Source: an uncultured Hyphomicrobiales bacterium (GTDB lineage Bacteria; Bacteroidota; Ignavibacteria; Kapaibacteriales; UBA2268). Taken from it: DNA of 64,000 bases. The notes under the pieces were generated by a model that saw only the letters and a program-made list of their open reading frames with translations, ran no database searches and was not told where the DNA came from. Each line of letters starts with the position of its first letter. Positions within the stretch are counted from its first letter, which is position 1. The translations under genes were made by a program, and so were the position numbers. This document shows positions 33,002-60,241 of this stretch, in pieces. The stretch spans positions 30,703-94,702 of the forward strand of contig CAYXMM010000005.1 in assembly GCA_964465945.1 (NCBI GenBank), written 5' to 3'.

Positions 33002-33438
33002 TGATTGAATTTAATATTAACTCCGATGACCTGAATAATCAATTTGGTAAAATTCAAGGTGAAGTAAATAAAAAGATTGACCTCAAGAAAATATATAGAG
33101 GTGTCGGCGAGGTATTGCAGACGGCTGTTAACTTCCAATTTGAAGAAGAAGGGGCTTATTTAGGTAGGAAATGGGAGCCACTCGCAGCATCAACAATCGA
33201 AAGACGTAAGAAGTTAGGTAAATGGCCAGGTAGCATTATGCAGGTTACTGGGCGATTGAAGTCATCGTTTACTTATTCAATCGTTGGCAATTCGGTGATT
33301 ATAGGCACGAACGTATCTTATGCAAAAAAATTGCACTTTGGAATTGGACGAATGCCAGCTCGCCCTTTATTTACTTCACTGCTAAACGAAGAGACAAAGG
33401 ACGAGATTAAGCATGCTATTTTAAAGGGACTGGTGTAA
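33001..33438 (+). CDS. Virion morphogenesis protein (Mu G / Phage_tail_S-like)
   Basis: 145 aa; WEPLAASTIERRKKLG…IMQVTGRLKSSF matches the W.PL…R…G…tGrL.S signature of Mu gpG-like proteins. Confidence 0.55.
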   Translation: MIEFNINSDDLNNQFGKIQGEVNKKIDLKKIYRGVGEVLQTAVNFQFEEEGAYLGRKWEPLAASTIERRKKLGKWPGSIMQVTGRLKSSFTYSIVGNSVIIGTNVSYAKKLHFGIGRMPARPLFTSLLNEETKDEIKHAILKGLV

Positions 33439-33449
33439 TCTAATATTAT

Positions 33450-33947
33450 TTATACTTTATAAATTAAATTTCCTATTTTTTTAATTTTGTCTCTGATTTG
33501 ATTAAGTAGTTGTAGATTAACATTGTTTAAAGTTTCTTTTTTATTAGGGTTTAAATTTGGTTTTTCATACATGACAGAAATACACCTTTTCAATTCAAAG
33601 CATGAATCTTGAAGTATTTTTAATTTATCTTGGATATCTCCCTTTTGTATATCATAAAATATTGTATAATTTTGCATTGTTTCAATATTCTTTATAATAT
33701 TAATAAATACCTCTTCATATTTACTTAAATCAATGTTAATATAATTATTATTATATATTTGGTTTAGTTCAATTGCCGAATTTGACAGATAATTATAATA
33801 TTTTATTAATGTTTTAAAGTAATAATCATGCTCTCTTATTTTTTTGTTAATTCTAAGATAAATGTAAATTACTGCAATAAAATTTAATAATGATAAAAAA
33901 GAATTAAGTAAATCCCCGTATGTTATATCAGTCAAACAATTCATCAA
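33450..33947 (-). CDS. Small N-terminally membrane-anchored protein; third gene of the GHKL/STAS-like operon
   Basis: 165 aa; N-terminal TM (LLNSFLSLLNFIAVIYIYL), remainder soluble; ATGA start/stop overlap with the upstream gene. Confidence 0.4.
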   Translation of the reverse strand: MMNCLTDITYGDLLNSFLSLLNFIAVIYIYLRINKKIREHDYYFKTLIKYYNYLSNSAIELNQIYNNNYINIDLSKYEEVFINIIKNIETMQNYTIFYDIQKGDIQDKLKILQDSCFELKRCISVMYEKPNLNPNKKETLNNVNLQLLNQIRDKIKKIGNLIYKV

Positions 33948-34321
33948 TTGAGATATTCTCTATTAGCATTTGTAATATATTCATCTATTATTTCCCGAAT
34001 ATTTGAATTTTCCGTTGAAGTAATTATTAAAGTTTTTAAGACTCTGTCGCTTTTATATTTTCTAGACAATTCGCCAAATGATCCATCGTAAAAACTTGAA
34101 GGTCTAGTTAATAAATCGTCTACATTAACTACGAGTTTTACATTATTTTTTTCTGCTTCTAAAAATTTAGGTTCTAATATCGAATTTAAAAACCTTTCAC
34201 CTGAATTCTTCTCACCATTATTTTCTTCATTTAAATACCTCTTCCCAGGTACTTTTGAGAAGTCTGTTGCAATATTTATCATTAGATTATCCATTAAATT
34301 CCCAATAATAATACGTTCCAT
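33944..34321 (-). CDS. STAS-like (DUF4325-type) small protein
   Basis: 125 aa; VNVDDLLTRPSSFYDGSFGEL matches the …vDF.gV…sSF.DE.fg.L signature I recall for STAS-like DUF4325 proteins that partner with GHKL ATPases; overlaps upstream gene by 35 nt. Confidence 0.45.
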   Translation of the reverse strand: MERIIIGNLMDNLMINIATDFSKVPGKRYLNEENNGEKNSGERFLNSILEPKFLEAEKNNVKLVVNVDDLLTRPSSFYDGSFGELSRKYKSDRVLKTLIITSTENSNIREIIDEYITNANREYLN

Positions 34322-35279
34322 TAAAAGGAATGTTTTTTTCTATATACTCATCCTTTTGTGGTTCAGCCAAAATATTATTGGCAAAAATACGCAAATTTTG
34401 AATATTACCATCATTTAATATTTTATTGATAGTTGGTAATCCTCTACCTCTATGTTGTTCTTTTGTTCTTGACAAATTTGCCTCGTTTTTTAATATCATT
34501 TTTAGTTTTTCAGAAGCATTATAACTAATTAAACCTATATATTTTTTTTTATCTTCAATTGTGTTCATAATCCCTTTCCCGTGATCCATAAATACAAATT
34601 GAAATGCTTTTAAGTTGTTGTTGTAAAAAACACTAAGCCACCATTTTTCAGAGGAATTTTGCTCACCAGCATGTTCTGCCGTGTTATCCATTATTTCCGT
34701 AAGAACAGTCATACAATCAACGATTGTATCTTTGTTTATACTAGGAAATTTTGAATTTATAAATTTATAAATTTGTTCTATCAACTCTATGCTTCTATTT
34801 TCATATGCTAAAATTTGAAACATTTCACCAATACTATCATGCACATCAATGCCGGCTCCCTCTTTTGATGTATATTGATGGAAACCTGAATCTGAAATAA
34901 AAGTATCTACATCGTTACTTAAAGGTGATATAAATGAAATAAAATGTCTCTTTTGAGGGTATTTGTAAAACACTGAAACTAAATACATTAAAGTAGATGT
35001 ATCAGTTATACTAACATTTTCAAAACTCAATGCAACATACTTGTTATTGTTTATCAATTTTATTGCTGTATTTATTATTTTTTCAATTTCTTTATAATTT
35101 TGTAATAATTCTAAATTCTCTGGAAACTTTATTTCTTTCTTTTTTAGACTTGTTATAGGTGTTCCAATATTTTCTTGTTGTAATTGCCTTTTATTACTTT
35201 TCTTTTTCCTGTTTTTACGTTTATTTTCTTTTATTCTATTAAATTTCTTCCTTTCATTTGTAGTATGTAATTTTTTCAT
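34287..35279 (-). CDS. GHKL-superfamily ATPase (anti-sigma-factor-kinase/histidine-kinase-like) with a highly basic N-terminal tail
   Basis: 330 aa; MTVLTEIMDNTAEHAG (N-box E…N..H), FMDHGKGI (G1 box D.G.G), HRGRGLPTI (G2 box); N-terminal 40 aa are ~50% K/R. Confidence 0.5.
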   Translation of the reverse strand: MKKLHTTNERKKFNRIKENKRKNRKKKSNKRQLQQENIGTPITSLKKKEIKFPENLELLQNYKEIEKIINTAIKLINNNKYVALSFENVSITDTSTLMYLVSVFYKYPQKRHFISFISPLSNDVDTFISDSGFHQYTSKEGAGIDVHDSIGEMFQILAYENRSIELIEQIYKFINSKFPSINKDTIVDCMTVLTEIMDNTAEHAGEQNSSEKWWLSVFYNNNLKAFQFVFMDHGKGIMNTIEDKKKYIGLISYNASEKLKMILKNEANLSRTKEQHRGRGLPTINKILNDGNIQNLRIFANNILAEPQKDEYIEKNIPFNGTYYYWEFNG

Positions 35280-35441
35280 ATTCGTAAATTAGTTACTTCA
35301 CTTTAACATATTTTGTCGTATTCCAACATTCAAATTTAAGCCATTAATTCCAAACACGCAAGGGCTTTATGATTTTTTTTTGACTTCCTTACAAAATATT
35401 ATTTAATGTGATTAGGGATATTTTTATCTCCCTTTTCACAA

Positions 35442-35777
35442 TCACCACTCCCCAGATGCTATTATCGGATATTGCTTTGCTAAATGTGAAACATAAATCC
35501 AACAATCCAAATCGCCCTTGTAAGATATTACTTTGACTTTTACTCGCTGGTAAAAAGACGGAACACCTTCTAATTTATCTAATAAAGCCAGCGTTTTATC
35601 ATCGACTTCATAAACTTCACCTTTGATTTGTCCCTGCCCTTTGATTGCGAATGGAAATTGCGGTCCAGCGTGTAAATCAAACCCTTGTGCTACACCAAAG
35701 ATTGGTTTTAATGGGGAGAGCAACCTGTGATTTGGTTGCCCTTGCTTTAATGTTCCATAAACAAATACTAAATGCAT
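35442..35777 (-). CDS. AIG2/GGCT-fold gamma-glutamyl(amine) cyclotransferase-like protein
   Basis: 111 aa; VFVYGTLKQG motif and downstream GEVYEV…LDKLEG…YQRVKVKV with catalytic Glu, typical AIG2/GGACT. Confidence 0.75.
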   Translation of the reverse strand: MHLVFVYGTLKQGQPNHRLLSPLKPIFGVAQGFDLHAGPQFPFAIKGQGQIKGEVYEVDDKTLALLDKLEGVPSFYQRVKVKVISYKGDLDCWIYVSHLAKQYPIIASGEW

Positions 35778-36211
35778 TTTGTTACCTCTAATTTATTATA
35801 ATATTGTTTTGATAAAAACTCTTTACCTTTCAGCAAATGGTTTAAATATTTTTTACTAGGCTTTAGTCTAAAATCCACAAAGTAATTATTGGCTATGTAA
35901 ACGAAAGCCCATTTATAACCATACTTTGTTTTAACTAACATTTCAATTCGGTTATAATGAAAAGGGCAACCCTCAAATCTATCTAACTTTTTTATTTCGT
36001 TTTTACTTGCTAATTCATAAAGAACCCCTTCGACTTTTTCACCAATCTTATAATGAATATTAGCAAAGCCCTCACCCAATCGAAATGCTTTTTTTGAAAA
36101 TCTAAGTGTAGAATTTTCGATTGTTCCTTTCTCATAGCCAGTAAATTTCACTTGCCTTTCTATCATTCTTTCGACGTTCATATTTGAACCATAAGCGAAG
36201 TAGTAAAACAT
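35768..36211 (-). CDS. GGCT-fold gamma-glutamyl cyclotransferase-like protein (second paralogue)
   Basis: 147 aa; YFAYGSNMNVERM motif and VEGVLYEL…LDRFEG…YNRIEMLV. Confidence 0.75.
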   Translation of the reverse strand: MFYYFAYGSNMNVERMIERQVKFTGYEKGTIENSTLRFSKKAFRLGEGFANIHYKIGEKVEGVLYELASKNEIKKLDRFEGCPFHYNRIEMLVKTKYGYKWAFVYIANNYFVDFRLKPSKKYLNHLLKGKEFLSKQYYNKLEVTKCI

Positions 36212-36441
36212 TAAAGTTCCTCAACAAATTTATACTTGATTAAATCCTCTAAGAAATCTTCGCAGCAGTTAGACCTAATAATAACTGAATTATCTACATA
36301 ACATCTTTTTGCTGTTTCGGACATAAATAAATTAATATTATCTCTAAATCCGAATATTGAAAGTTGATTAAGTTGATTAACAAAATCAACTGGGTTCTGG
36401 GATTTAATTACTCCACCACCTAATAATTTATATTTTTTCAT
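36211..36441 (-). CDS. Small hypothetical protein (candidate substrate/partner of the amidoligase cassette)
   Basis: 76 aa; start overlaps stop of the downstream GGCT gene; Cys-rich middle (RSNCCEDF). Confidence 0.3.
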   Translation of the reverse strand: MKKYKLLGGGVIKSQNPVDFVNQLNQLSIFGFRDNINLFMSETAKRCYVDNSVIIRSNCCEDFLEDLIKYKFVEEL

Positions 36442-36515
36442 TTTATTACCCTTTATTTATTATTTTAAATTTTTCATTATCTAAATATTCACAGTTAATG
36501 CAGTCTGATGAGTTT

Positions 36516-36605
36516 TTACATTCTCATTGCTTCTTCTTTTGTGTATCTTTTTGCTTTCCAACTATTATTATTTTTGTCTACCCAATACCCTTTTTCTAAT
36601 TTCAT
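36516..36605 (-). CDS. Unannotated 29-aa basic peptide ORF (MKLEKGYWVDKNNNSWKAKRYTKEEAMRM) with a strong Shine-Dalgarno sequence
   Basis: AAGGAG 6 nt upstream of the ATG; sits between the amidoligase gene and the 76-aa ORF. Confidence 0.25.
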   Translation of the reverse strand: MKLEKGYWVDKNNNSWKAKRYTKEEAMRM

Positions 36606-36636
36606 TTTAAACTCCTTTTGAGAAAAGAGAGGTTGG

Positions 36637-37566
36637 CTAAGCTGCCAACTCTCTTGTTCTGTTTTGAAAATAATTTATTAAATCGTTGTTTAAAAATCTT
36701 CTTAAGTTTACATCATCAGCATTTTCGATTTCTGTTCGTTTGGAAATCTCAATCAATCTTGCTAAAAATTTTATCCAGTTTGAAATTTTCTCAAAACTTA
36801 CTGAAGCCCCATGTTGTCTAAATTCTACTGAATTTTGTCTCCAAAATGATTGAGTATTTAATTTATAATATCTACTTTGATTTGTTATTAAACTTTCAAT
36901 CTCTCTTAAACTTATTGCATTGTCAATTTTTATTTTATAATTAGCTACTTTCATTGTGTGGCAGTAGCTGTTAGAATTTCCTCTTCTTGATTGTGGCATA
37001 AATCCATCAATCCAAGTTTCTAAGTTTGCATAATTTTTATATAAATTTTTCCAAGTTTCCAATTCAAAGTTCGAAGCATCAAAGTGAATATGAACTCCAC
37101 AAGATTTGTTTGTTTTTGCTTCTAAGCCCCTTGTGATTAAAAGTACTGTTTTAAGTTGTCTTAATCCATCTTCGCCTTGTAATTTTGGTGAAACAATTTC
37201 AAAAGAATTAGCACCTTGAAGTGAAGCGTCCCTTACAATTTTCCAATGGTCTCTTGTTTGGTGATTGTAGCCTTCGGCGTTTGTGTTAATTCCTGCGTTT
37301 CTTAGTTCAGTTTCTAATTCTTGCATTTTAATTCCAAAAGCTTCAATCTCAACTCCAAAAGTATGGTTGAATTGGAAGTTTGTTAATGAAGTGCTTATTC
37401 TTGTGTTAAGTTGTGCCTCAGCCCATTTTTTATGAACGTTGAAAGCAAATCCGTAATTTGTTCCAAGTAATTCAGCAACTTGATTTCTTGTCAATCCCAA
37501 ATCAAAAAGCAATCTCATTTTTGCTGTTTTGTTTAGCGTGCTGTTTATTATTTGTTCTTGTGTCAT
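36637..37566 (-). CDS. Putative amidoligase (Amidoligase_2 / glutamine-synthetase-like COOH-NH2 ligase family)
   Basis: 309 aa; N-terminal FGVEIEAFG motif and overall size fit the Amidoligase_2 family, which Pfam describes as occurring next to AIG2-type cyclotransferases. Confidence 0.55.
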   Translation of the reverse strand: MTQEQIINSTLNKTAKMRLLFDLGLTRNQVAELLGTNYGFAFNVHKKWAEAQLNTRISTSLTNFQFNHTFGVEIEAFGIKMQELETELRNAGINTNAEGYNHQTRDHWKIVRDASLQGANSFEIVSPKLQGEDGLRQLKTVLLITRGLEAKTNKSCGVHIHFDASNFELETWKNLYKNYANLETWIDGFMPQSRRGNSNSYCHTMKVANYKIKIDNAISLREIESLITNQSRYYKLNTQSFWRQNSVEFRQHGASVSFEKISNWIKFLARLIEISKRTEIENADDVNLRRFLNNDLINYFQNRTRELAA

Positions 37567-37760
37567 TTTATAACTCCTTGTTTATTAAGTATTTAATTAA
37601 TTGTTTTAATTTAAAAGCAACTTAACACTTAATCTCTTGCAAGTCAAGTCATAACTTGTTTATTTTCAAGTAATTATAAAATAAAGTTATCCACTACGGA
37701 ATTTTCAATAATTTTGACAAAGAACGACAATAATTTTTCTTTTGGGTTTGATTTTACCTC

Positions 37761-37994
37761 GTGATTTTATTAACTAAAAATTTATTATTTTTGCAAATGA
37801 CATTAACCGAATTAATTTATTCAGATTTAGAGAAAAGGCGACTCTTTTACCTTAATTCAAACGAAGAAGAACTAAGGCAATTATATAGTGAAATCAATAG
37901 CTTTGAAGATGTAAGAGAAGCAAAGTTAATTAAAAAAGAACTTGGATTATTAATTAATTTACTTTATAAGCCGATTAAGATTAAATCAACTTAA
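37761..37994 (+). CDS. Small hypothetical protein
   Basis: 77-aa ORF, the only plus-strand ORF between two minus-strand blocks. Confidence 0.2.
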   Translation: MILLTKNLLFLQMTLTELIYSDLEKRRLFYLNSNEEELRQLYSEINSFEDVREAKLIKKELGLLINLLYKPIKIKST

Positions 37995-38261
37995 TTTTTT
38001 TATTAAAGTTTTATAATTAATTCCTAATTCTTTTGCTATCTTTTGCTTACTAACATTTTTATACTTATCCTGCTTGATTACTCGTTCTACGACTCTGTCG
38101 AAATAAAGCAACGACGGAATATAAATTTGAACTCCGCTATAAAGCTCAATAAGTTTTTTCATTGCATCAATCCCAATAATGTGGGCAATCTCTTGGAGCT
38201 GTTCTTTTGCTCTCAAATCCTCAAATGCTATATTTTCTATTATTTCTTTTTTTATACTCAT
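37986..38261 (-). CDS. Small helix-turn-helix DNA-binding protein
   Basis: 91 aa; C-terminal KQKIAKELGINYKTLIKKL is an HTH. Confidence 0.35.
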   Translation of the reverse strand: MSIKKEIIENIAFEDLRAKEQLQEIAHIIGIDAMKKLIELYSGVQIYIPSLLYFDRVVERVIKQDKYKNVSKQKIAKELGINYKTLIKKLS

Positions 38262-38384
38262 TTTTCCTCCATATTTACGCTGTATTGAATTTTAATTTTA
38301 ATTTTGGTATCTTTATACACTCTCTGTCGCTTCGTTTAACCTACCCTCAATTCTGCAACAAATCGGGCATAATAAGCAAGTCCA

Positions 38385-38777
38385 TTAATCCGATTTTTGT
38401 TCTACATAATTTAAAACTTCCTCCCAAGAGTCGGTTACCAAGATTGAATTTCCGAATTTTGCTGCGAGTGAAATAAAATCTTTCTGGGCTTCACGGAGTT
38501 TTCCAGTTTTGGATTTAACCTCTACCATCAGGATTTTATTATTTTTAATTGCTATTAAATCTGGGAAGCCAGCTGTTGCTCCGTTATTCATAATCTGATA
38601 AAATCTAACAAGACGTTTGCCGATAGCACGGACTCCTGAGTTAATTCTAACAACAAGATATTTTTTTAATTTAAGAACTTCGATGATTTTACTTTGAATT
38701 TCACTTTCAGATTCATCAACAAAGATTCTTTTTTGCAAATTAGAATTTCGGTTCATTGTCTCCCTCAAATTCATCAT
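38385..38777 (-). CDS. VRR-NUC (PD-(D/E)xK) nuclease
   Basis: 130 aa; GFPDLIAI…MVEVKSKTGKL…Q matches the D…E.K restriction-endonuclease-like core of VRR-NUC. Confidence 0.55.
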   Translation of the reverse strand: MMNLRETMNRNSNLQKRIFVDESESEIQSKIIEVLKLKKYLVVRINSGVRAIGKRLVRFYQIMNNGATAGFPDLIAIKNNKILMVEVKSKTGKLREAQKDFISLAAKFGNSILVTDSWEEVLNYVEQKSD

Positions 38778-41336: not shown

Positions 41337-42170
41337 TTAATTACCCTCCTCATCAATCCATTTATTAATTTGATTAGTCCAGTTTTCTATCAAATCAATA
41401 AAATGGTAATAATTATTAGAATTATATAAGTTTGGGATTAATTCCTCTTCAATATCATCTATAATATTTTTTTCTGAATACCCATGAATTTTTAATGCTT
41501 TAACATAATAATCTAATTTGATTATAGAATCTATATCATTCCAGTCTTTAAATGTTTTGCGACCTATACCTCGTAATTTCACTAATTTCTGCTTAATTGG
41601 AGGCATTTTTTTTACATTTATAATTTTTCTTAAATTTGTGAGGAAGTCTTCTACTGTTTTTTGAGTAGGACAACCTTCGTTATCGAACCGAATATATCGA
41701 TCAAATGTAATATCAATACATTCAATTATTAATTTAACGTCAGTGTTTTTTAAGATTTCACTAATTATTTTTCTTCCGTTTTCATTGAACACCCAATGAT
41801 GATTCATCTTATGTTTATAATAATCACATATATTATCAATCATGTATTCATTGTTTGATTCAAGACTTTTTTTCCATTCAAACATCAATCGTATTTGTTC
41901 TCTTCTTTCACTATCATTTTCAATTTGTTTTCGTTCAATAGTGATGGTAGTATTATCACTTAATAATTTATCTTTTTTACCAAGATTGCAATCTCTACAC
42001 GAAGTAACGAGGTTAATCAAGCTATTATCTCCACCTTTACTTACAGGTGTAATATGATCTAAATGAAGTATTACATCTGGAGCTTTCTGCCCACAATATT
42101 GGCAAGTGAACTTATCTCTTTTAAAAACTTCAAATCTTGTTTTTACACTAATTATTTTTCTTTTTCCCAT
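41337..42170 (-). CDS. HNH endonuclease
   Basis: 277 aa; CQYCGQK…HLDHITPVSKGGDNSLINLVTSCRDCNLGK contains the Cys pairs and H…N…H of HNH. Confidence 0.65.
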   Translation of the reverse strand: MGKRKIISVKTRFEVFKRDKFTCQYCGQKAPDVILHLDHITPVSKGGDNSLINLVTSCRDCNLGKKDKLLSDNTTITIERKQIENDSERREQIRLMFEWKKSLESNNEYMIDNICDYYKHKMNHHWVFNENGRKIISEILKNTDVKLIIECIDITFDRYIRFDNEGCPTQKTVEDFLTNLRKIINVKKMPPIKQKLVKLRGIGRKTFKDWNDIDSIIKLDYYVKALKIHGYSEKNIIDDIEEELIPNLYNSNNYYHFIDLIENWTNQINKWIDEEGN

Positions 42171-42308
42171 TTTTTGTCTCCTTTATTTATAATAAGTTTA
42201 TTATTTTTTAAGTCTAATCCTTTCTTTACTGGTCTAGCCATTTTTAACCTTTAATTTACAGTCTCTATATAAAAAATACACTCTTAGCAAGGTTTTATAT
42301 TTGCTATT

Positions 42309-44300: not shown

Positions 44301-44361
44301 TATTTATTAATTTGATGTTGTTTTAAATTCGCTTTTATATTTTACTTTTTCTTTGATGTTC

Positions 44362-44853
44362 TTATGATTCGAATAAAATGCTTCCAAAATAAAAAGATGA
44401 TGCCTTTATTAAATCATAATCATCTTGAATTTTTGTTGTTTCAAAACGTTCAACAATATCTTCAACTTCATTTTCTATCGGAATATCACTTAACATATAG
44501 GTTGCTATTGTTTTGTTTAAAATTCGTTGTTGTTCGCTCGGGATAAAATCATAAAAAAAATAATCATTATATTTGCTTGCAATTTCTAAGTTTATTAATT
44601 GAATTTTGTTATTAACAAATTCAATCAATACTTTAATTAAATTACCATTTTTAATTATAACAGTATCAAAATCACGTTCAAACATAATCACCGGCGGAAA
44701 TGGTGAGCCGATTAATAACGTTTCAACTATTTTAGATTTTTCAGCGTCTGTTAAATAAGTGCTATCTACTCCAAAAAATTTTAATTGATTTTGTCTTGCA
44801 ACATAAACTCCTAATGAATACATTTTAATTTTATGTTCGTATTTATAAATCAT
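44362..44853 (-). CDS. Hypothetical protein
   Basis: 163-aa ORF. Confidence 0.3.
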   Translation of the reverse strand: MIYKYEHKIKMYSLGVYVARQNQLKFFGVDSTYLTDAEKSKIVETLLIGSPFPPVIMFERDFDTVIIKNGNLIKVLIEFVNNKIQLINLEIASKYNDYFFYDFIPSEQQRILNKTIATYMLSDIPIENEVEDIVERFETTKIQDDYDLIKASSFYFGSILFES

Positions 44854-45610: not shown

Positions 45611-45964
45611 TTAATTGAACTCATTTAAAAACTCCTTTGCTTTATTCAATCTTTCCATAAAAGTCTCTTTGCTAATTTCTTTGATGTTCTTATGATTTGA
45701 ATAAAAATCTTCCAAGACCCAAAGGTGGCGCCTCACGCGATTGCTACGTTTTCCCATTTTTATAGAGTAAGAATTAGTATCATCTAAATCTATTTCAACT
45801 ATGTTAAAATCTTCATTCTCATCTGTCCAGATACCTAAGTATTTATTAGTCGGTGAGTTATACTCGGTTATCGTTGAATGAATAAAGCAATTCGATGTAT
45901 CAATTTTTTTAACAAATTCTTCTTTATTTGTAATTGTTTTTTTGAAAGTAATTTCTTCTATCAT
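45611..45964 (-). CDS. Hypothetical protein
   Basis: 117-aa ORF. Confidence 0.3.
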   Translation of the reverse strand: MIEEITFKKTITNKEEFVKKIDTSNCFIHSTITEYNSPTNKYLGIWTDENEDFNIVEIDLDDTNSYSIKMGKRSNRVRRHLWVLEDFYSNHKNIKEISKETFMERLNKAKEFLNEFN

Positions 45965-46510: not shown

Positions 46511-46947
46511 TTTAACTCCTTTAATTTTTTTGTCATTTCACGTAATTTTTTGTCATATTTAACATTATACCTTTCAGGTGTAGTGTTTATAGTAGTCCGA
46601 TTACGATTGAATAACCTTGCTATATCTTGCTGTTTATGAATACTACTTGTTAGTAAGTCATTTATAATTACTGCTCGTAAATAACATAATTCTAACTTTC
46701 TACTTTTTCCGATTACATCGGACATTTTATAATTGTAAAATTCAACGAATTTTTCGTATTGAGTTAAAAGGTGCGGTTTAACTATACCTTCATTTAAAAG
46801 GTTCAACCTCTCTTTTATAGCAGCTTCAGCGCGTTCCACCTTTAACTTTAAAATGGTAATATCTGCTTCTTTCTTTGCAATTTCAGATTTAAAATCTTTC
46901 ACTTTCTTTTTTAGCTTATTTAAAATCAAATCGTTATATTCTTTCAT
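46507..46947 (-). CDS. Coiled-coil plus DnaA-C-terminal-domain-like helix-turn-helix protein
   Basis: 146 aa; KSRKLELCYLRAVIINDLLTSSIHKQQDIARLFNRNRTTINTTPERY mirrors the DnaA domain IV pattern (R..a.yL.r.lt..S…iG..f.r.HtTV). Confidence 0.4.
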   Translation of the reverse strand: MKEYNDLILNKLKKKVKDFKSEIAKKEADITILKLKVERAEAAIKERLNLLNEGIVKPHLLTQYEKFVEFYNYKMSDVIGKSRKLELCYLRAVIINDLLTSSIHKQQDIARLFNRNRTTINTTPERYNVKYDKKLREMTKKLKELK

Positions 46948-47639
46948 AAGTATGCCTTTATATATTGATTGATTGGTGTAAGTCGCTCGTCTTTTAAATC
47001 CAAAAGAAACTCAATAGCATCCTCACCTTTAATTAATTTATCAGATTTTTCTTTATTTTTTTGCACGTATTTTTTTTGAATTTCTCTTATTTTTTCTCTA
47101 TTTTTTTCGCGATATTCTTTTTGATATTTTTGATATTTTTCTTTATTTTTTTGCACGTATTTTTTTTGAATTTCTTTGTATTTTTCTTTGTTTTTTTCAA
47201 TAGATTTTTTTTGACTTTCTCTGTATTTTTCTTTGTTTTTCCAATAATAAACTCGCCTTGCTCTTTTTCTTCTTTCTTTGACATCATTGAGTTCTTCATT
47301 TGCTAATTTCTCATTATTTTCAAATAAATCAAAAATTGCTTTTTCAGAAAAGCCCTTTGAAAGCATAGTATCTACTAATTCTTTTTTAAGTGCCTCCATC
47401 AAATTAAATATATGCTCCCAATTTTCAATTTCATTTGAAATTTCAAATTCTTTTAAAAAATAAACTTCAAAAAAGTCATTTCTAATACAAATTGCATCTT
47501 TTCTTATCCGATTGTCAAACATAAACCATTCTAAGTTACATATCTGCTCGGACATCTTCAAGTAATCCTTTCCGTAATATTCATTTTTGTATGCTAAACT
47601 TTGAATTTTAGCGCTCAATTCCATTTCTTTTTTATACAT
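46944..47639 (-). CDS. Lys/Glu-rich protein with tandem KNKEKY(K/Q)EIQKKYVQKNKEK repeats
   Basis: 231 aa; nucleotide tandem repeats at about 47047-47100 and 47137-47190. Confidence 0.3.
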   Translation of the reverse strand: MYKKEMELSAKIQSLAYKNEYYGKDYLKMSEQICNLEWFMFDNRIRKDAICIRNDFFEVYFLKEFEISNEIENWEHIFNLMEALKKELVDTMLSKGFSEKAIFDLFENNEKLANEELNDVKERRKRARRVYYWKNKEKYRESQKKSIEKNKEKYKEIQKKYVQKNKEKYQKYQKEYREKNREKIREIQKKYVQKNKEKSDKLIKGEDAIEFLLDLKDERLTPINQYIKAYL

Positions 47640-47887: not shown

Positions 47888-48007
47888 AATGGATTATATT
47901 CACCGCAATTAATACAGCATTTAACTCTTAGATTTCTGCTAATCTTTTTATATCTATGTAACCCAATAGAACAAAGGAATTTTTTAATTGTTCGTCTCAT
48001 AATAGCC

Positions 48008-48220: not shown

Positions 48221-48227
48221 AATAGCC

Positions 48228-50349: not shown

Positions 50350-50743
50350 TATTTTTTCTCCAAATTTTTACTTCTTGTTCCCAAATTGTTAATTCGTCTA
50401 ACAATAGTTTGTTGTCTGTTCTTAATTTTAATTTAACTTTTAAAATTTCCAAATATTCAATAAGTTCCGATAATAATTCATTTTCAGTTATCAAACACTG
50501 CCAAATTGGATCCAAACAATCTATTTCGTTTTGATAGTTTCTTGGAGGTTTACATAAAGGTTTTTTAACTTCAACATTAAATACTACTTTATTTGGCTCA
50601 TTTGTAAATTTAGTAACACCTGATCCTTTCGTAGGTGATGGAGTAACTTTTCTACTTACTGGAGAGTATCCACCACCATTAAGAGGAACAGGGATTGGTT
50701 GTAAAATAAATTCTAATATTTTTTTTAATGTCGACTTTATCAT
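50342..50743 (-). CDS. Hypothetical protein
   Basis: 133-aa ORF. Confidence 0.3.
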   Translation of the reverse strand: MIKSTLKKILEFILQPIPVPLNGGGYSPVSRKVTPSPTKGSGVTKFTNEPNKVVFNVEVKKPLCKPPRNYQNEIDCLDPIWQCLITENELLSELIEYLEILKVKLKLRTDNKLLLDELTIWEQEVKIWRKNNE

Positions 50744-50752
50744 TATATTACC

Positions 50753-51643: not shown

Positions 51644-51811
51644 TTTCTTGCACCTTGTTTTAATTTAGTATTAATCACACTCATTTTATAATATTCAGTG
51701 TTTGATTTATGCGGTTTACCATTTCTCATTTTAATTGCTAAATCATCGTTCGGATTTAGTTTAGTAATTTTAGTTATTTCAGTTAAATTCATTTTATCTT
51801 TCCTTTTTTAT

Positions 51812-52168
51812 TTAATTATTTCTTTTTAGATAGTCATAAAGTTCTTGCACTTTCATAGAGCTTCTTGCATACAATAGTATAGTTTTGTTTTTGTTTCGTT
51901 GTCTTACTTCATATTGTGTTTCAATTCTATTTCTAACTTGAGATTGTGTAATTTTATCTATTTCACTCATTTCTGCACAAGTAACAATAGTTTCGCCGTG
52001 CATACCTAACACTATATTAGTTAGTGCGTTCTTTATTTCAGTTTCAAGCTCTTTTAAAGTTATAACCTTTTTACTAAGTTCAGGATAATCCGTTTCGATT
52101 TCCTGTATTAATTCTTTGTTTATTTTATTTTTCATTTTTTTTCTTTTTATTTCATTAGAATATCCCAA
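51812..52168 (-). CDS. Hypothetical protein
   Basis: 118-aa ORF. Confidence 0.3.
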   Translation of the reverse strand: MGYSNEIKRKKMKNKINKELIQEIETDYPELSKKVITLKELETEIKNALTNIVLGMHGETIVTCAEMSEIDKITQSQVRNRIETQYEVRQRNKNKTILLYARSSMKVQELYDYLKRNN

Positions 52169-52221
52169 ATAATCTAAATAAAAAATAACACTATAAAAAT
52201 CAATGAGTTGTTATTTCATTT

Positions 52222-52293
52222 AAAAATCCCCTCGCCGACTATGACAAATATTTAGGAGTATTAAAAACATAGTCATTGAGGGGGATTCTGGGG
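52222..52293 (-). terminator. Long imperfect stem-loop followed by a U-run, downstream of the exonuclease gene
   Basis: aatcccctc…atgac / gtcat…gagggggatt arms; on the minus strand the stem is followed by TTTTT. Confidence 0.35.
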
Positions 52294-53274
52294 TTATTTA
52301 ATTAACAACACTCTTACTTGTGTCTGTTTTTCATACTTCACATACTCGTCTGGATTGTCTTCTTTGAATGCTTTTGAATCAAAAGAATTTCTATTTTGGA
52401 CCTTGTAAGTCGCTAAAATTAATTCGTCTTTAGTTTTAATTCCTTCTTTATCGTAGATAGCCATTTTTATTTTATCTTCCAAAAATGACTTGTTTTTATC
52501 AAGCTCTTTAATCCTGTCCTTAATTTCAGTCAATTGAGTATATGCTTCTAATAAATCATCATCTGCAACTGTAAAATCACCTACAACTTTATAATCTATA
52601 AATTTATTTAATTCCTCTGGGTTAGTTGGCGGTGGCATTACTCCTTTTGAAAGGTAGTGATCAACAAAATTATTTACCTTTTGCAGTGCAATTTCAATTA
52701 ATTTCTCGTTATACTCAATCGGATACCATTCAATATGACCACCGAATTTGAATTGGACTGTTGCAAAATATGCCTTTCTAAATCCAGTTACATACATATA
52801 CCATTGAACTTGCATATAATAATGTGGATTAGTCTTAATAAACTCTTCTTTGGATTTAAAAAAATTATTAGTAACTAATTTACACTCAACGATTGCTGGT
52901 GAGCCGTCATAGTCGATTGTGAAGTAATCCAAAGAGCCGTGCGCCACTCCACGCTTTAAGATTGTAACTTTTTCACCTTGAAAATCTACATCAACAAATC
53001 GAACTTCATCATCTTCAATCATAGCTCTTAATTCTTTAGTGCTTTCGGCTGGTGAGAATACAGGCAAAGAGGTTGCTTGTGAAAATAATTTAGCAATAGC
53101 GGGCTCAAATGCTTTACCTAATCTCATTGCATCATTTTCTTCAACTTTATATCCGTTAACTTTTTCATTATAAACATCAAATTGAGTTTTATAAGGATTA
53201 ACTCCGCAGATAGCAGCTACATCTGTTCCTCCGATTGATTTTTTACGCTCAGAGATAAAGGTTGCGGTACTCAT
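52294..53274 (-). CDS. YqaJ-type viral recombinase exonuclease (lambda-Exo fold)
   Basis: 326 aa; N-terminal SIGGTDVAAICGVNPYKTQFDVY matches the YqaJ signature. Confidence 0.65.
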   Translation of the reverse strand: MSTATFISERKKSIGGTDVAAICGVNPYKTQFDVYNEKVNGYKVEENDAMRLGKAFEPAIAKLFSQATSLPVFSPAESTKELRAMIEDDEVRFVDVDFQGEKVTILKRGVAHGSLDYFTIDYDGSPAIVECKLVTNNFFKSKEEFIKTNPHYYMQVQWYMYVTGFRKAYFATVQFKFGGHIEWYPIEYNEKLIEIALQKVNNFVDHYLSKGVMPPPTNPEELNKFIDYKVVGDFTVADDDLLEAYTQLTEIKDRIKELDKNKSFLEDKIKMAIYDKEGIKTKDELILATYKVQNRNSFDSKAFKEDNPDEYVKYEKQTQVRVLLIK

Positions 53275-54203
53275 ACTTTAGCATCCTCATTTATCATATT
53301 TAAAATGTTATTATTGTCAGCTGCTTGGATTTCACCTGTTTCAATATCTACATTATAGTCGTCTTCATATTCAGTGTCTCTTTGATACTCTTCAATAGTA
53401 AATTCTTTGACTGGCTCTGTAAGTTCTCTTCTTATTACTTGCGATTCAGGTAGTAATAGTCTTTGTTTATCTTCAGTCGATAAAGGTAGATAAGTAGCTA
53501 AAGCTCTAACCGCTTTCCCTTTTGCCATTTCAGCATAATGCGTATCCCAGATTCCAGATGGTGTTTCACCACTTTTTTGAGTTTTAGATAATTTCCGTCT
53601 TTTCTCAATCTGATTTTTAGTTAGAACAGCAAAAGTAAAAGAACCGTCTTTAAATCTTGCCACAGCATAAGAGTATTTTAAACTTTTATGGTCGTCATTT
53701 AAAAAAGCAGGTTTGTGTTTAAGGGAACGATTTAAACCGTATTCTATCTCAAATTCATCACCTTCATAAACAACTTCAGCATAAATATCAGCGATACTAT
53801 TAGACCTTCTTGCCAATTCTAAATAACCTTTATAGCCAATTTGGAATTGAACTTCTTTTTGACCTTTTATAAAATATGGCACATAATAACAATGCCCTAA
53901 TGCTGGTGCTGGCTCTAATCCAAGAATAGCCGTTTGTTGCAATGCTCCAAATATCGATTGCAAAGAACATTCTTTAAGCTCTGGGTTTTTTTCAAATATA
54001 GTCGCAACCATCGTAACGAATCTATCTGAACTCATTGTATCCGTAAATGACTTTTTCAAAGTGTTAGTCATTCCTGAAACTACTTCTGAGATTTGAGTTG
54101 ATTTAAACCCTTTTAATGAGTTTTGCTTACTTGCGATTCCCATAGCAGACATCTTTTTTTGTTCCATTTGTATAGCACTATTTGTTTTTGCTAATTCAGA
54201 CAT
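53271..54203 (-). CDS. RecT-family single-strand annealing protein
   Basis: 310 aa; …HCYYVPYFIKGQKEVQFQIGYKGYLELARRS… and W..HY.EMAKGKAVRAL segments resemble RecT; translationally coupled to the YqaJ exonuclease. Confidence 0.55.
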   Translation of the reverse strand: MSELAKTNSAIQMEQKKMSAMGIASKQNSLKGFKSTQISEVVSGMTNTLKKSFTDTMSSDRFVTMVATIFEKNPELKECSLQSIFGALQQTAILGLEPAPALGHCYYVPYFIKGQKEVQFQIGYKGYLELARRSNSIADIYAEVVYEGDEFEIEYGLNRSLKHKPAFLNDDHKSLKYSYAVARFKDGSFTFAVLTKNQIEKRRKLSKTQKSGETPSGIWDTHYAEMAKGKAVRALATYLPLSTEDKQRLLLPESQVIRRELTEPVKEFTIEEYQRDTEYEDDYNVDIETGEIQAADNNNILNMINEDAKV

Positions 54204-54457
54204 TGTTCTACTCCTTTTGTATATTTTTTAATTATTTTTGTATTAATTTTTTTTAATTCGGTCGAAACATCTTCAATATTACCTTCTCTTATTTGATGTT
54301 TCAAAAAGTATAATTCCTTTTTGCAATCTCTAATCACTTCTTTAATATTAATATTATGATTATCTTTGTATAATATACAATCAAGAATATTCAATGTTTG
54401 AAGTGAAGAAATAATCCCGTATTCTTCTAAGTCGTTTTTTAACATTTTATACCTCAC
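54191..54457 (-). CDS. Small hypothetical protein
   Basis: 88-aa ORF. Confidence 0.25.
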   Translation of the reverse strand: MRYKMLKNDLEEYGIISSLQTLNILDCILYKDNHNINIKEVIRDCKKELYFLKHQIREGNIEDVSTELKKINTKIIKKYTKGVEQCLN

Positions 54458-54729
54458 AAAAAGAATTCAACTAAAAGGACAAATAATAGAGCAGTGCCAC
54501 ATATAGCGTTCATAGCAATCAAGAATTTATCTCTTTTTTTACTGGCTTTCGTTTCGTTTAATATTGTTTTCATATTAATATCTATCTCATTTAGTTTATT
54601 GTTAATATCGTAACACCCAGATAGGTGAAGCAAGTAAAGTTCAACTAATGTGAATTTACTGTAATCAGCAGGAACTTCTTTAATAATTCGTTCCATTTCG
54701 TTGTCGTAGTTTGCATTAATTGTTTCCAT
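54454..54729 (-). CDS. Small hypothetical protein with C-terminal TM
   Basis: 91-aa ORF; C-terminal ICGTALLFVLLVEFFL. Confidence 0.25.
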   Translation of the reverse strand: METINANYDNEMERIIKEVPADYSKFTLVELYLLHLSGCYDINNKLNEIDINMKTILNETKASKKRDKFLIAMNAICGTALLFVLLVEFFL

Positions 54730-54985
54730 TTTCTAACTCCTTCATAATATCACCTATTTTGTCAATTTCTTCGTTAAATCGTGAGTAAATTAGGTGATTA
54801 ACCTCTTGCGTAAGGTCAATAGCGAGCTGTTGGCAGTCAATTCTATTCAGTTGAGCGATAAGCCCAGCATTTAAAGTTCCGACAGAACCGATTTTAATTT
54901 TATCAACTATACCTTGCAAGCCCAATAGTTTAGAACTCAACTGGGATAGTTGTGTAAAATTATTTTGTGTGTTTGATTTGCTCAT
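54716..54985 (-). CDS. Small hypothetical protein
   Basis: 89-aa ORF. Confidence 0.25.
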   Translation of the reverse strand: MSKSNTQNNFTQLSQLSSKLLGLQGIVDKIKIGSVGTLNAGLIAQLNRIDCQQLAIDLTQEVNHLIYSRFNEEIDKIGDIMKELENGNN

Positions 54986-55025
54986 TACAAATCTCCTTTA
55001 TAATTTTGTAAAAAATAATATGTTT

Positions 55026-55067
55026 CTGGTGGCTTCTATTTTAGAATGATGAGCCACCAGTTTTTTT
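55026..55067 (+). terminator. Stem-loop (ctggtggct … agccaccag) followed by TTTTTTT between cro-like gene and downstream early genes
   Basis: 9-bp perfect stem, 17-nt loop, 7 T on the plus strand; on the minus strand the stem is preceded by the A-run and followed by a distal U-rich stretch. Confidence 0.4.
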
Positions 55068-55284
55068 ATGCAAATTCTTTAAGACTATCTAAAATTTGAT
55101 TAGCTCTATCCGCAAGTTCTTTCTCTTTTAATAATTTTTCTTTTTCAACCTTTACTACCATTCTGATAACATTCAAATCATTATTGTTTACTTTATGATT
55201 TAAGACTTGTCTTGTTATACCAAGTCTTTTCGCTGCTTCAGTCCTGGTACCTCTCGAAAATTTTCTTTTTTTTACATCAGCCAT
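55066..55284 (-). CDS. Cro-like small HTH regulator
   Basis: 72 aa; AAKRLGITRQVLNHKVNN HTH; transcribed divergently from the CI-like gene. Confidence 0.5.
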   Translation of the reverse strand: MADVKKRKFSRGTRTEAAKRLGITRQVLNHKVNNNDLNVIRMVVKVEKEKLLKEKELADRANQILDSLKEFA

Positions 55285-55337
55285 TTGATTTAATCCTAAT
55301 TATTCCTTAAATTGCAATTGTTTTTATTTTCTTTATA

Positions 55338-55467
55338 TTTTCGTTTCGTTTTCGTTTCGTTTTACAAAGTTTTATTATTGTAGAACTATTCCGATAATAC
55401 AAGAAGGTAAATATAAATATATTTTCGTTTCGTTTTCGTTTCTAAAACAAAATTAGGAAACGTTTCC
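55338..55467. promoter_or_regulatory. Operator/promoter region of the CI-Cro switch with repeated GAAACG/CGTTTC half-sites
   Basis: ttttcgtttcgttttcgtttcgtttt (55338-55363), ttttcgtttcgttttcgtttc (55422-55442) and perfect palindrome GGAAACGTTTCC (55456-55467). Confidence 0.5.
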
Positions 55468-55515
55468 GAAACTTCCAAATTATATTTTTAATTTTCTTAA
55501 ATTATTTTTGGTATA

Positions 55516-56256
55516 TTGTATAAACCTTCTATTAACAATAGGTTGAAAGTGAAAAAAAATTTCATACAAGAGCAATTAAGAGAAAATCTTAGATACATTT
55601 TTAAAAAAACTTCTGCGTCAATGAACAAAATGCATGAAAATAAAGTTGTTTCTAAAGGGTATATGTCGAAATATTTAAAAGATGAGAATATGTTTTTAAG
55701 TAGTGATAAAATTGAGAGCATATCTAATTATTTAGGTATTCAAATAAATGACTTAATTAATAAAGATTTATCGAAATCTGCCGACCCACTTAATATAAGT
55801 AATAATACAATTCCTATAGAATTAAAAAAACAAAAACCAGAAATCCAATTCATCGAACAAAAAAACGGGCAAGTAACAGAAATTCCATTATATGAAAGCA
55901 CCGTATCGGCTGGAATTCCGAAAGAGATATTTGATTATCCACCAATGAAGATAGCAGTAGCACCAATTAAACAAGGTGCGTTTGCAGTGAAAGTTAGTGG
56001 TGATTCGATGATAGATTTTAAAATTGATGATGGTGACACATTGGTGGTATTCCCTACGACTGAATTAAAATTCAATCAATTAGTAGTAGCAAAATGTGGA
56101 GATGCTTACACTGTTAAAAAATTAGAAAAGAGAGATGATGATTATTTGTTAGTGCCTGGCAATAAAAAGTATGAGCCAGTAATAATAGATGATACAGACA
56201 AGTTTGAAATAATCGGCTATGTGCTTTATATTATGAAAAAGCCGTTTTTAAGTTAA
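55516..56256 (+). CDS. CI-like repressor: N-terminal XRE HTH plus C-terminal S24 (LexA-like) autopeptidase
   Basis: 246 aa; VKVSGDSMID (Ser nucleophile) and VVAKCGDAYTVKKL (Lys) of S24; N-terminal HTH. Confidence 0.7.
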   Translation: MYKPSINNRLKVKKNFIQEQLRENLRYIFKKTSASMNKMHENKVVSKGYMSKYLKDENMFLSSDKIESISNYLGIQINDLINKDLSKSADPLNISNNTIPIELKKQKPEIQFIEQKNGQVTEIPLYESTVSAGIPKEIFDYPPMKIAVAPIKQGAFAVKVSGDSMIDFKIDDGDTLVVFPTTELKFNQLVVAKCGDAYTVKKLEKRDDDYLLVPGNKKYEPVIIDDTDKFEIIGYVLYIMKKPFLS

Positions 56257-56312
56257 TTGTTGTAAATTGCATTTTTAGAAAGAAAATTAGTTTTATTATA
56301 TAAAGGTGTTTT

Positions 56313-56615
56313 ATGAAAAAATTAATAGTATTAGTCTGTTTGTCATTCATTTTTGCTTTGTCTCAGGAAAAAGAAATAAATTATAATTCAGGAACATTTA
56401 CAAAAATGTCAAACGAATCGATAAATGATTCTTTAAATGTAGAGAAAGATTCTTTAGAAATTAAAACAGCGAAGAAAAAGATAAAACAAAAGGCAGAAGA
56501 TGAATATTATACTGGACAATGTCAAGGATTACCAAAAAAGGTAAACAATGTAAAAGAAATGCTTCAGGTGGAACTCGGTACTGCTATCAACACGGAGGAA
56601 AATAATGAGGAATAA
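56313..56615 (+). CDS. Small secreted protein (signal peptide)
   Basis: 100 aa; MKKLIVLVCLSFIFALSQE signal peptide. Confidence 0.35.
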   Translation: MKKLIVLVCLSFIFALSQEKEINYNSGTFTKMSNESINDSLNVEKDSLEIKTAKKKIKQKAEDEYYTGQCQGLPKKVNNVKEMLQVELGTAINTEENNEE

Positions 56616-57153
56616 CATTATTACAATATTAACTATAATATTTATAGTTTCCCTAAATAATATATTGTTTTCACAGGAAATACCTATTTCATGCTCTAAA
56701 TCATTGGTCAAGGTTGAAGATGGAGGAGATATATACTTTAGGACTTTCAAAGATTTAAAAATAGAAAGCATCTACAAAAAGAAAAAACATAATATTAATT
56801 TTAGTATTGTTCAATTCGAACAAGCAATGAGTTTATTCTTTAAATTTGAAAAAAATATTTGTTTTGATGTTGGAAGCCGTTTAGTAATTACTCTTCGTGA
56901 TAGTAGTGAAATTACTGTGATATCAAGAATGAAAGAAAAAAATTGTGAAGGACAATTATATTATACTTTGTCACATGTTAGTGATGTTGAATCTATCAAA
57001 AAAATTAACGAAAAAAGTATTGAGTCTTTAAAAATTTATAATAAAAAGGATAAAATAACATTAGATATTAGCGAATATGAACTTGCAAATATATCACAGA
57101 ATATATATTGTTTAGCAAAAATATTTAACCAAACTTTCTGGAATCAAGATTGA
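56605..57153 (+). CDS. Secreted protein (signal peptide); candidate partner or inhibitor of the adjacent nuclease
   Basis: 182 aa; N-terminal ILTIIFIVSLNNILFSQE signal peptide; overlaps upstream gene by 11 nt. Confidence 0.35.
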   Translation: MRNNIITILTIIFIVSLNNILFSQEIPISCSKSLVKVEDGGDIYFRTFKDLKIESIYKKKKHNINFSIVQFEQAMSLFFKFEKNICFDVGSRLVITLRDSSEITVISRMKEKNCEGQLYYTLSHVSDVESIKKINEKSIESLKIYNKKDKITLDISEYELANISQNIYCLAKIFNQTFWNQD

Positions 57154-57243
57154 AAAGGTGTAAGATGAATTTAGTAATAAACAATATTAGAGATTTTATT
57201 CAAACTCCACAGAATATATTTAATCATTAAATTTTGTAATAAT

Positions 57244-58029
57244 ATGCGAAAAACATTAATAATATTGTTAATTTCTTTAACATTTATTTCCTGCTCTGAA
57301 AGCAACACAACAGAGCCAGAAGATAAACAAACTACTTATTCCTATTTAGAACTTCCAGACACAACACTCGGTCAAATAGTCCACCATCATAATTATACTT
57401 TATCTTATGCTGAGGAATACGAACAAGCATATTGGGTGGCTTATGAATTAGTATCAACAGAACTTGTTAAGAATTACGAACGAACAGACGATTTTATTAT
57501 AGACCCTGCCGTAATAACTGGCAGTGCAGAAGCAAGCGACTACAAAGGAAGCGGTTACGATAGGGGTCATTTAATGCCAGCAGCAGTATGCACTTGGGAT
57601 TCTACTGCAATGGCTGAAAGTTTCTTTTACTCAAATGTATCCCCTCAAAATGCTTCGTTTAATCGTGGTGTTTGGTCTCGACTCGAAGATTTAGAAAGAG
57701 AACTTGTTACTAAATATGATACAGTTTGGGTGGTAGTAACTCCGATATTTAATAATGTAACAAAATATATAGGTGCAAACGGGGTAGCAGTTCCAAGCGA
57801 TTACGGACGTGCCTTTTTAGTCAATGATAACGGAGTTTATAAAGGAATTGCATTTATACTTAGTAACGAAGCCAAGTCGTCCGACTACGATATAATCGAA
57901 AATGCTTCATATACAATAGACGCATTAGAAAAAAGAATTGGTATTGATTTATTCTTTCAACTTGACAATCAAATTGAAGATATTTTAGAAAGTAAAATCA
58001 GTAAAGAGATGTTTGAGGGGATTAAGTGA
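57244..58029 (+). CDS. Secreted lipoprotein DNA/RNA non-specific endonuclease (Endonuclease_NS, DRGH motif)
   Basis: 261 aa; lipobox LTFISC; SGYDRGHLMPAA active-site motif of Serratia/NucA-type nucleases. Confidence 0.75.
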   Translation: MRKTLIILLISLTFISCSESNTTEPEDKQTTYSYLELPDTTLGQIVHHHNYTLSYAEEYEQAYWVAYELVSTELVKNYERTDDFIIDPAVITGSAEASDYKGSGYDRGHLMPAAVCTWDSTAMAESFFYSNVSPQNASFNRGVWSRLEDLERELVTKYDTVWVVVTPIFNNVTKYIGANGVAVPSDYGRAFLVNDNGVYKGIAFILSNEAKSSDYDIIENASYTIDALEKRIGIDLFFQLDNQIEDILESKISKEMFEGIK

Positions 58030-58219
58030 ATAACAAATATATGAATCTTTAAAAAATTATGGTGAAACACCCGATACTAATAAACAAAGATTAAAAAATT
58101 ATTTATTTTTCCAAATATTTTAGAATATTTATTGAAATTATTCTATTCTTAATTCCATATAAAAATTACAATTTTCATTATACAAATACTGACGGAGTAA
58201 TTGAATATTATAAAAGTAT

Positions 58220-58294
58220 CGTCCTTTATTCACTCCGCACTTAAACGAATAGGTAAAGGACGAGATTAGGCACGCTATTTTAAAGGGACTGGGT
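58220..58294 (+). pseudogene. Degraded 3' fragment of a MuG-like virion morphogenesis gene (homologous to 33361-33435)
   Basis: ~75 bp aligning with the end of ORF 33001-33438 (38-bp core 35/38 identical); translates RPLFTPHLNE* versus RPLFTSLLNEETKDEIKHAILKGLV*. Confidence 0.4.
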
Positions 58295-60238: not shown

Positions 60239-60241
60239 ATC

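Follow-up and report, generated by a model that had tools for sequence, protein, structure and literature searches.

The window analyzed here, a 64,000-nucleotide stretch of contig CAYXMM010000005.1, carries a 52-kb prophage integrated at a tRNA-Glu gene. We conclude that the segment from 58219 to ∼58800, next to the integrase gene of this prophage, is most probably a nonfunctional recombination scar. It would derive from a second, related phage genome, from the place where the MuG-like gene of that genome met the neighboring cargo gene, and is lodged in a permissive moron slot. An earlier note on this DNA had described a 75-bp repeat of the MuG-like gene end at this place; judged from the sequence, the relic is a two-gene leftover of ∼580 bp rather than 75 bp alone, and the note missed ∼500 bp more.

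The repeat pair and the truncated cargo gene

Self-BLASTN of the window aligned 33360 to 33433 with 58219 to 58292 over 74 bp at 83.8% identity (E = 2.2e-15), confirming the repeat that the earlier note had pointed out. The pair is the second best among the internal repeats of the window, and a separate repeat search of the window returned it as family D2. By exact count, 62 of 76 bases agree between 33360 to 33435 and 58219 to 58294, and the longest exact blocks shared by the copies are 19, 14, 8, and 8 bp. The 38-bp core of the match (33396 to 33433 and 58255 to 58292) is as described before, except that 36 of its 38 positions are the same (95%), not 35. When searched as a pattern with up to 3 mismatches, this core matched only the two copies in the window, with 0 matches expected from 100 shuffles, and the similarity thus exceeds chance. 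The copies, here called A and B, form a direct repeat pair spaced 24.9 kb apart, of a sort that phage genomes rarely carry.

Copy A (33360 to 33435, plus strand) consists of the final 25 sense codons, RPLFTSLLNEETKDEIKHAILKGLV, of the MuG-like gene (33001 to 33438, plus strand), and its left flank reads GGAATTGGACGAATGCCAGC. This gene is an intact virion morphogenesis or tail completion (Neck1) gene of 145 amino acids (aa). It belongs to PF05069 (54.2 bits against a cutoff of 24.3, model positions 12 to 140 of ∼148) and to PHROG 26 (E = 1.5e-24), and every one of its homologues of 56 to 97% identity is 145 to 146 aa long.

Copy B (58219 to 58298, plus strand) is a dead relic of a MuG-like 3′ end, with the ending GGTGAGA as in L003, the relative with the most similar MuG protein. 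In the MuG frame it reads RPLFTPHLNE*VKDEIRHAILKGLGE, with a TAG at 58250 to 58252 and the natural stop codon gone, which bears out the earlier description of this copy as a gene remnant. A complete MuG would be an open reading frame (ORF) of ∼145 aa; copy B has 25 codons with an internal TAG, no start codon, and no homology upstream. Its left breakpoint, 58218/58219, lies within MuG codon 120/121. As the earlier note had stated, the copy sits between a nuclease gene (PF01223, 57244 to 58029) and the integrase gene (PF00589, 58912 to 60084). The spacer from the nuclease stop codon to the relic (58030 to 58218) is AT rich and has no match elsewhere in the window or among the relatives.

A 10-bp perfect inverted repeat, TCGTCCTTTA...TAAAGGACGA, lies within 58219 to 58263 and starts exactly at the left edge of the relic. 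The RPL and KDE codons give rise to it; in copy A and in L003 it is imperfect, and L004 and L008 do not conserve it. That a hairpin sits at the breakpoint may be more than coincidence, though its fold is not significant.

The contexts of both copies were reproduced in three independent assemblies from other samples. L001 spans 32655 to 34050 and L002 spans 57969 to 60270, where its contig ends, both at 100% identity; L020 spans 58535 to 64000. The arrangement is therefore no assembly artifact. BLASTN at distant settings with both repeat regions found no match among 50,697 GenBank phages. Exact and back-translated core patterns had 0 matches in viral and metagenome contig collections, which thus held neither extra copies nor deletion junctions.

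About 25 bp past the 75-bp MuG piece, whose right flank reads GGTGAGAGAGATTTATATCTTCC, begins a 5′-truncated fragment of a cargo gene on the minus strand (58318 to 58800), consisting of 160 codons (58321 to 58800) and a stop codon (58318 to 58320). The frame contains no ATG, GTG, or TTG. When this 23%-GC stretch was shuffled 5,000 times, the mean length of the longest open frame was 51 codons and the maximum was 110, so the 160-codon frame is a real, or very recently real, coding sequence. A word-indexed homology search with this frame gave no match, but one strong relative, P0127 (640 aa; E = 1.4e-17), emerged when 1.84 billion representative proteins were scanned in full with phmmer; residues 11 to 150 of the query aligned to 484 to 619 of P0127. 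Pairwise BLASTP between the two gave 49% over 103 aa (E = 9e-26). P0127 in turn matches a 659-aa ORF of L004 to L007 over 546 residues (E = 2e-34), and the fragment matches the L004 ORF directly (E = 5e-8; 52.4 bits without composition correction, against a shuffle mean of 23.4, a standard deviation of 3.2, and a maximum of 37.4).

The C termini of the fragment and of the 659-aa protein share three hydrophobic segments in matching order. A full-length member has a long N-terminal soluble part before these segments; only the equivalent of ∼484 to 619 of P0127 is present here. The fragment is thus the C-terminal quarter of a membrane protein family of 640 to 660 aa, with ∼480 N-terminal codons missing. 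The 659-aa relative fell into no Pfam, PHROG-level, or PADLOC family and had no tBLASTN match among the same GenBank phages. When P0127 and the integrase were used as queries for related loci in viral contigs, no match was returned.

The relatives L004 to L007 show how the two pieces belong together. There the 659-aa gene is convergent on MuG, lies on the opposite strand, and ends 2 bp past the MuG stop codon. By tBLASTX, 58220 to 58294 of the window corresponds to 10361 to 10435 of L004, and 58574 to 58645 corresponds to 10667 to 10738, inside the 659-aa ORF (10441 to 12420), with order and orientation kept. Since the two matches are colinear in L004, 58219 to ∼58800 is one MuG/cargo junction fragment. 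Its right edge falls at ∼58767 to 58800, about three-quarters into the cargo gene. Abrupt ends of homology, destroyed coding capacity, and colinearity with a related genome are what we would expect of a scar, and all are present. No other phage gene relics were found between the CI-like repressor gene and the integrase gene by tBLASTX against L004.

The cargo slot and early half in related phages

Few relatives exist in the searched collections, and tBLASTN of MuG against the GenBank phages returned only matches of <40% identity. The MuG proteins of the relatives are 97% (L003), 65% (L004, L005, and L006), 56% (L008 and L009), and 53% (L017) identical to that of the window. Flanks of up to 10 kb were fetched on each side of MuG. 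They were long enough for comparison in L003, L004, L005, L006, L008, and L009; L007 and L025 show the start of the slot, and the L017 contig ends 570 bp past MuG.

All 6 relatives with enough flank have MuG, then a short variable slot, and then, on the opposite strand, genes for two GGACT proteins, amidoligase, VRR-NUC, DnaB, and a Lin1244-type initiator. Nucleotide homology to L003 runs at 95% up to 33436, is absent through the slot, and returns at 35314 at 86 to 96%; what has been exchanged relative to L003 is thus a 1.9-kb cargo cassette alone, with the early region in place. The contents of the slot differ in every relative examined (4086 to 5407 in L003, 10441 to 13010 in L004, and 9364 to 10818 in L008). 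In the window, the slot (33439 to 35313, minus strand) holds three ORFs of 165 aa, 125 aa (DUF4325, STAS-like), and 330 aa (PHROG 3364), and PADLOC found no defense system match for any cargo gene. The L004 slot holds the 659-aa membrane protein gene, preceded by a 197-aa ORF with a weak match to the SocA/Panacea antitoxin (E = 1e-4, below the cutoff), hinting at a toxin-antitoxin pair.

These comparisons bear on the model of the earlier note, to which we give a small chance: that MuG ancestrally lay next to the integrase gene and that the whole 25-kb block now between the repeats came in, or was rearranged, as a single foreign unit flanked by duplicated 75-bp ends. In favor of this model, the nonstructural half of the prophage is exactly what the direct repeats enclose. 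However, because the relatives keep MuG, the cargo slot, and the same early genes together, the 25-kb block is the normal early half of this phage family and not an inserted island, and the L003 homology resumes on the far side of a slot of only 1.9 kb. We found no integrase homologue within the fetched flanks around the MuG of any relative. The remnant does adjoin the integrase gene, as the note had seen, but it is a deletion-truncated MuG/cargo junction and does not reflect a native order of MuG and integrase; MuG never directly abutted the integrase gene, because a truncated second gene lies between the MuG relic and it.

The distribution of the relic was assessed beside the integrase genes of three integrase relatives (L021, L022, and L026, with integrases 54 to 73% identical). 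In these three, homology stops at, or within 2 bp of, the integrase stop codon, other sequence follows, and the relic is absent beside the integrase gene. L020, from a 96.9%-identical strain, carries the cargo gene fragment at 100% identity; its contig stops at 58535 and does not reach the 75-bp MuG piece. Between L020 and the window, the 3′ half of the integrase gene (58912 to 59500) has ∼10 to 17 differences per 100 bp, 58535 to 58883 is 100% identical, and the 5′ half of the integrase gene is nearly so. From this pattern of differences, we read a short mosaic patch within the integrase gene.

A region in L010 (6906 to 7262; “Candidatus Kapaibacteriales” metagenome-assembled genome, CBFIFP010000015.1) directly after a MuG homologue contains short pieces like the window tail genes at 13270 to 13414 and 17642 to 17739, in an order unlike that of the window. 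Either this is a prophage that has decayed, or the architecture differs. The same metagenome-assembled genome carries a 54%-identical integrase on another contig, L021. The hosts of this phage family are probably Kapaibacteria-, Ignavibacteria-, or Bacteroidota-like.

Origin of the relic and alternative explanations

The observed homology, colinearity, truncations, prophage limits, and synteny of the relatives point to a history in which a second phage genome contributed the relic. Over the 76 columns of the repeat, identity of the relic is highest to the resident copy (82%), followed by L003 (78%) and by L004 and L008 (63 to 64%). In these columns the resident copy and L003 share 86% of their bases, though their MuG proteins are 97% identical. 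At the columns where the window and L003 differ, the relic, in an alignment read by eye, agrees with the window roughly twice as frequently as it does with L003. Three amino acid differences of the relic (T to V, K to R, and V to G) are residues of other family members. Because its divergence from the resident copy is similar to that between the resident copy and L003, and because three of its differing residues are used by relatives, the relic looks like a third allele, derived from a close relative with a 640-aa-type cargo gene rather than from decay of the resident copy, although the numbers are small.

Formation of the scar would need two illegitimate junctions, one at 58218/58219 and one at ∼58767 to 58800. 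By one route, two related phages would have integrated in tandem at tRNA-Glu and collapsed through two deletions. The first deletion would have removed the integrase gene of phage 1, the middle attachment (att) site, and the structural genes of phage 2 as far as mid-MuG, and the second would have removed the early region of phage 2 from mid-cargo gene to just before its integrase gene, leaving phage 1 with the MuG/cargo stub and integrase of phage 2. By the other route, the resident prophage would have lost its early region in one deletion from the cargo gene to the integrase flank. A complete relative would then have recombined with it, by one homologous crossover within the structural genes and by one illegitimate join at 58218/58219. 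This second route would keep part of the idea of the earlier note, because the early half would arrive as one piece and in a single acquisition; what arrived would, on this path, be no foreign island but a sibling phage's normal early half in place of one that had been deleted. Exchange between phages and prophages driven by RecT-type annealases is documented (PMC3945230 and PMC2327257), and this phage encodes RecT together with a RecE-like exonuclease. These are the two most economical routes, and they are about equally so.

Several points weigh against an origin from a second phage genome. The searched collections held no donor genome with a closer match, and no contig had a tandem lysogen or a deletion-derivative intermediate, so the pathway can only be inferred. 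The substitutions in the relic (5 third-position, 4 first-position, and 3 second-position) are uninformative, which leaves room for in situ duplication of the phage's own MuG/cargo junction. Finally, the 160-codon frame has stayed open throughout, with 100% identity in L020, and translation from a noncanonical start would be possible; an open frame shared with L020 also fits a recent event.

Duplication within the genome, in which the former MuG/cargo junction was copied into the moron slot, the original cargo was later replaced, and the copy decayed, seems to us improbable, on a par with the 25-kb insertion. The resident copy is indeed the closest to the relic (82%, against 63 to 78% for the relatives), and the cargo slot does turn over. 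But this history requires both an ectopic duplication and a cassette replacement, and the divergence of 16 to 18% resembles that between separate phage alleles, such as those of the window and L003. The adjacent 160-codon frame, moreover, is free of any stop codon, which argues that the differences were inherited rather than gathered by decay.

The earlier note had also suggested that the direct repeats make the block between them deletable by homologous recombination. The copies differ by 16 to 18% (84% identity over 74 bp and 82% over 76 bp), and their longest exact block of 19 bp is below the minimal efficient pairing segment, which is 23 to 27 bp for Red-beta and 31 to 34 bp for RecA (PMC3945230). 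This makes them inefficient substrates, and the suggestion survives in weak form: the phage encodes a RecT-like annealing protein and a RecE-like exonuclease, and phage annealases accept 12 to 22% divergence at reduced efficiency (PMC3945230 and PMC2327257). The RecE-like/RecT pair would be the only plausible catalyst of recombination between copies so diverged, and rare deletion during lytic growth is conceivable. By inspection of the sequence, deletion would leave the structural genes, the integrase, and a MuG lengthened by ∼21 aa at its C terminus, with all replication and immunity genes lost.

The homeologous MuG 3′ ends might also be thought of as handles, which RecT/RecE would pair during lytic growth, within the genome or with a coinfecting relative, so that the nonstructural half (cargo, replication, immunity, and morons) is dropped or exchanged as a 25-kb cassette. 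We regard this as very unlikely; if true, derivatives with structural genes plus integrase would arise, and a single exchange of the whole half would have left the scar seen today.

Slightly less credit still goes to the idea that the relic is a working element, acting either as an antisense RNA to MuG mRNA, produced when transcription reads through from the integrase gene, or as a RecT/RecE recombination handle for swapping or dropping the early half. The 95% identity of the core and the recombinases of the phage, of a kind that pairs sequences diverged to the extent just given, would suit such a role. However, neither copy has a terminator-like site, promoters are not in excess, 57900 to 59000 has no Rfam match above noise, and the fold z-scores (−0.6 to −2.1) were not significant; for these reasons we dropped any reading as a terminator or structured RNA. 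Nor is the relic conserved beside the related integrases or found elsewhere in the viral and metagenome collections; the exact blocks fall short of the minimum pairing length (PMC3945230), and a deletion product would have no replication or immunity genes. We consider the scar to have no present role and to be at most a poor homeologous substrate for the RecT/RecE of the phage.

Although the geometry resembles integration into a gene 3′ end with a substitute end, and an integrase gene lies near copy B, we dropped as next to impossible the reading of the repeats as att-type sites of a nested satellite, island, or second prophage, since the integrase gene (58912 to 60084) lies outside the flanked block (33360 to 58294), the 84%-identical copies share no exact core of >19 bp, the phage has no replication and immunity genes other than those of the enclosed block, which keep the canonical family order, and the 19-bp exact repeat at 8002 and 60220 (TCCCGTAGGGATCACTTAA), which is the true att core, pairs tRNA-Glu with the integrase-proximal end.

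Prophage setting and comparison with known systems

The attL core (8002 to 8020, plus strand) lies at the 3′ end of tRNA-Glu (7944 to 8016), and the identical 19 bp recur as the attR core (60220 to 60238, plus strand), which lies 135 bp away from the start codon of the integrase gene; after it comes a hairpin with a T-run. Host genes to the left of the prophage encode a GNAT acetyltransferase and a Cys/Met pyridoxal phosphate enzyme, and to the right lies a gene for a MiaB-like radical S-adenosylmethionine enzyme. The left part of the prophage carries tail and head genes on the minus strand, including those for a Clp-type protease and the major capsid protein, and a tRNA-Met (CAT) gene lies within its tail gene block (19345 to 19418, minus strand). 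The plus-strand block at 27478 to 33438 comprises methylase, a small ORF, large terminase, portal-MuF fusion, and MuG, which closes it. The fusion is a 746-aa ORF (30761 to 33001, plus strand) with portal (PF06074) and Mu-F-like (PF04233) domains, and it is fused, at 742 to 768 aa, in all close relatives.

The following minus-strand run contains cargo, two GGACT genes, amidoligase, VRR-NUC, DnaB, replication initiator, helicase, RecE-like exonuclease (52294 to 53274; PHROG 434, E = 3.6e-64), and RecT-like annealing protein (53271 to 54203; PHROG 148, E = 1.1e-71). Within it, an HNH endonuclease ORF (41337 to 42170, minus strand) has the replication initiator on one side and nucleotidase/helicase genes on the other; L003 matches little or nothing there, and the ORF may be a homing endonuclease insertion. 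A 58-bp direct repeat of 83% identity (44348 to 44405 and 45676 to 45733) lies at the ends of the small early ORFs 44362 to 44853 and 45611 to 45964, and a 45-bp unit recurs in ∼4 to 5 tandem copies (47036 to 47260) inside the minus-strand ORF 46944 to 47639.

The plus strand after the early genes encodes a CI-like S24 repressor (55516 to 56256), two small ORFs, and a lipoprotein-like nonspecific nuclease, followed by the relic and the tyrosine integrase (minus strand), which has an arm-binding domain. The nuclease moron (plus strand), the left neighbor of the relic, is a nonspecific DNA/RNA endonuclease with a lipoprotein-like signal sequence (PF01223, E = 1.2e-42). A look-up of the exact nuclease and CI proteins of the window found no record. 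The divergent intergenic region between the minus-strand ORF 55066 to 55284 and the repressor gene contains a 25-bp perfect direct repeat, TATATTTTCGTTTCGTTTTCGTTTC, at 55334 to 55358 and 55418 to 55442, with an 80% copy at 55323; these repeats are candidate operator sites of the immunity switch.

If our reading is correct, the scar is a concrete, datable trace of an encounter, at the tRNA-Glu locus that this prophage lineage occupies, with a second, related phage genome. It also shows the slot 3′ of the MuG-like gene to be a hot spot of cassette exchange in a poorly sampled phage family. For annotation, neither intergenic DNA nor a small ORF is the right label for 58219 to 58800, which should be entered as two pseudogene fragments. 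The scar is of a well-known, ordinary prophage kind and reveals no new mechanism.

The gene of copy A behaves as a member of the Mu gpG/PF05069 family (PHROG 26), being intact and placed after portal-MuF as in Mu-like head modules; copy B, unlike members of that family, is a fragment of 25 codons with an internal stop. As in other prophages with tRNA-targeting tyrosine integrases, the exact 19-bp core at the 3′ end of tRNA-Glu has its duplicate beside the integrase gene; unlike such att repeats, the 75-bp repeats are diverged and lie inside the prophage. The RecT and exonuclease of this phage recall the uptake of DNA from defective prophages by Rad52-like recombinases (De Paepe et al. 2014, PMC3945230), and a structural gene crossover with rescue of, or by, a deletion-bearing resident prophage would be one plausible history here as well. 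Unlike in that route, both junctions of the relic are illegitimate, and relaxed homologous recombination alone therefore cannot have made them; no donor or defective partner was found. The closest likeness is to the novel-joint remnants of mosaic temperate phages, explained by the illegitimate recombination model of phage mosaicism (PMC2327257 and PMC3945230): the relic is an out-of-context partial gene with abrupt homology ends in a nonessential slot between modules, colinear with the neighbor gene of the donor and absent from other relatives. It differs from them in that two convergent gene ends were kept together and an intact paralogue is present in the same genome.

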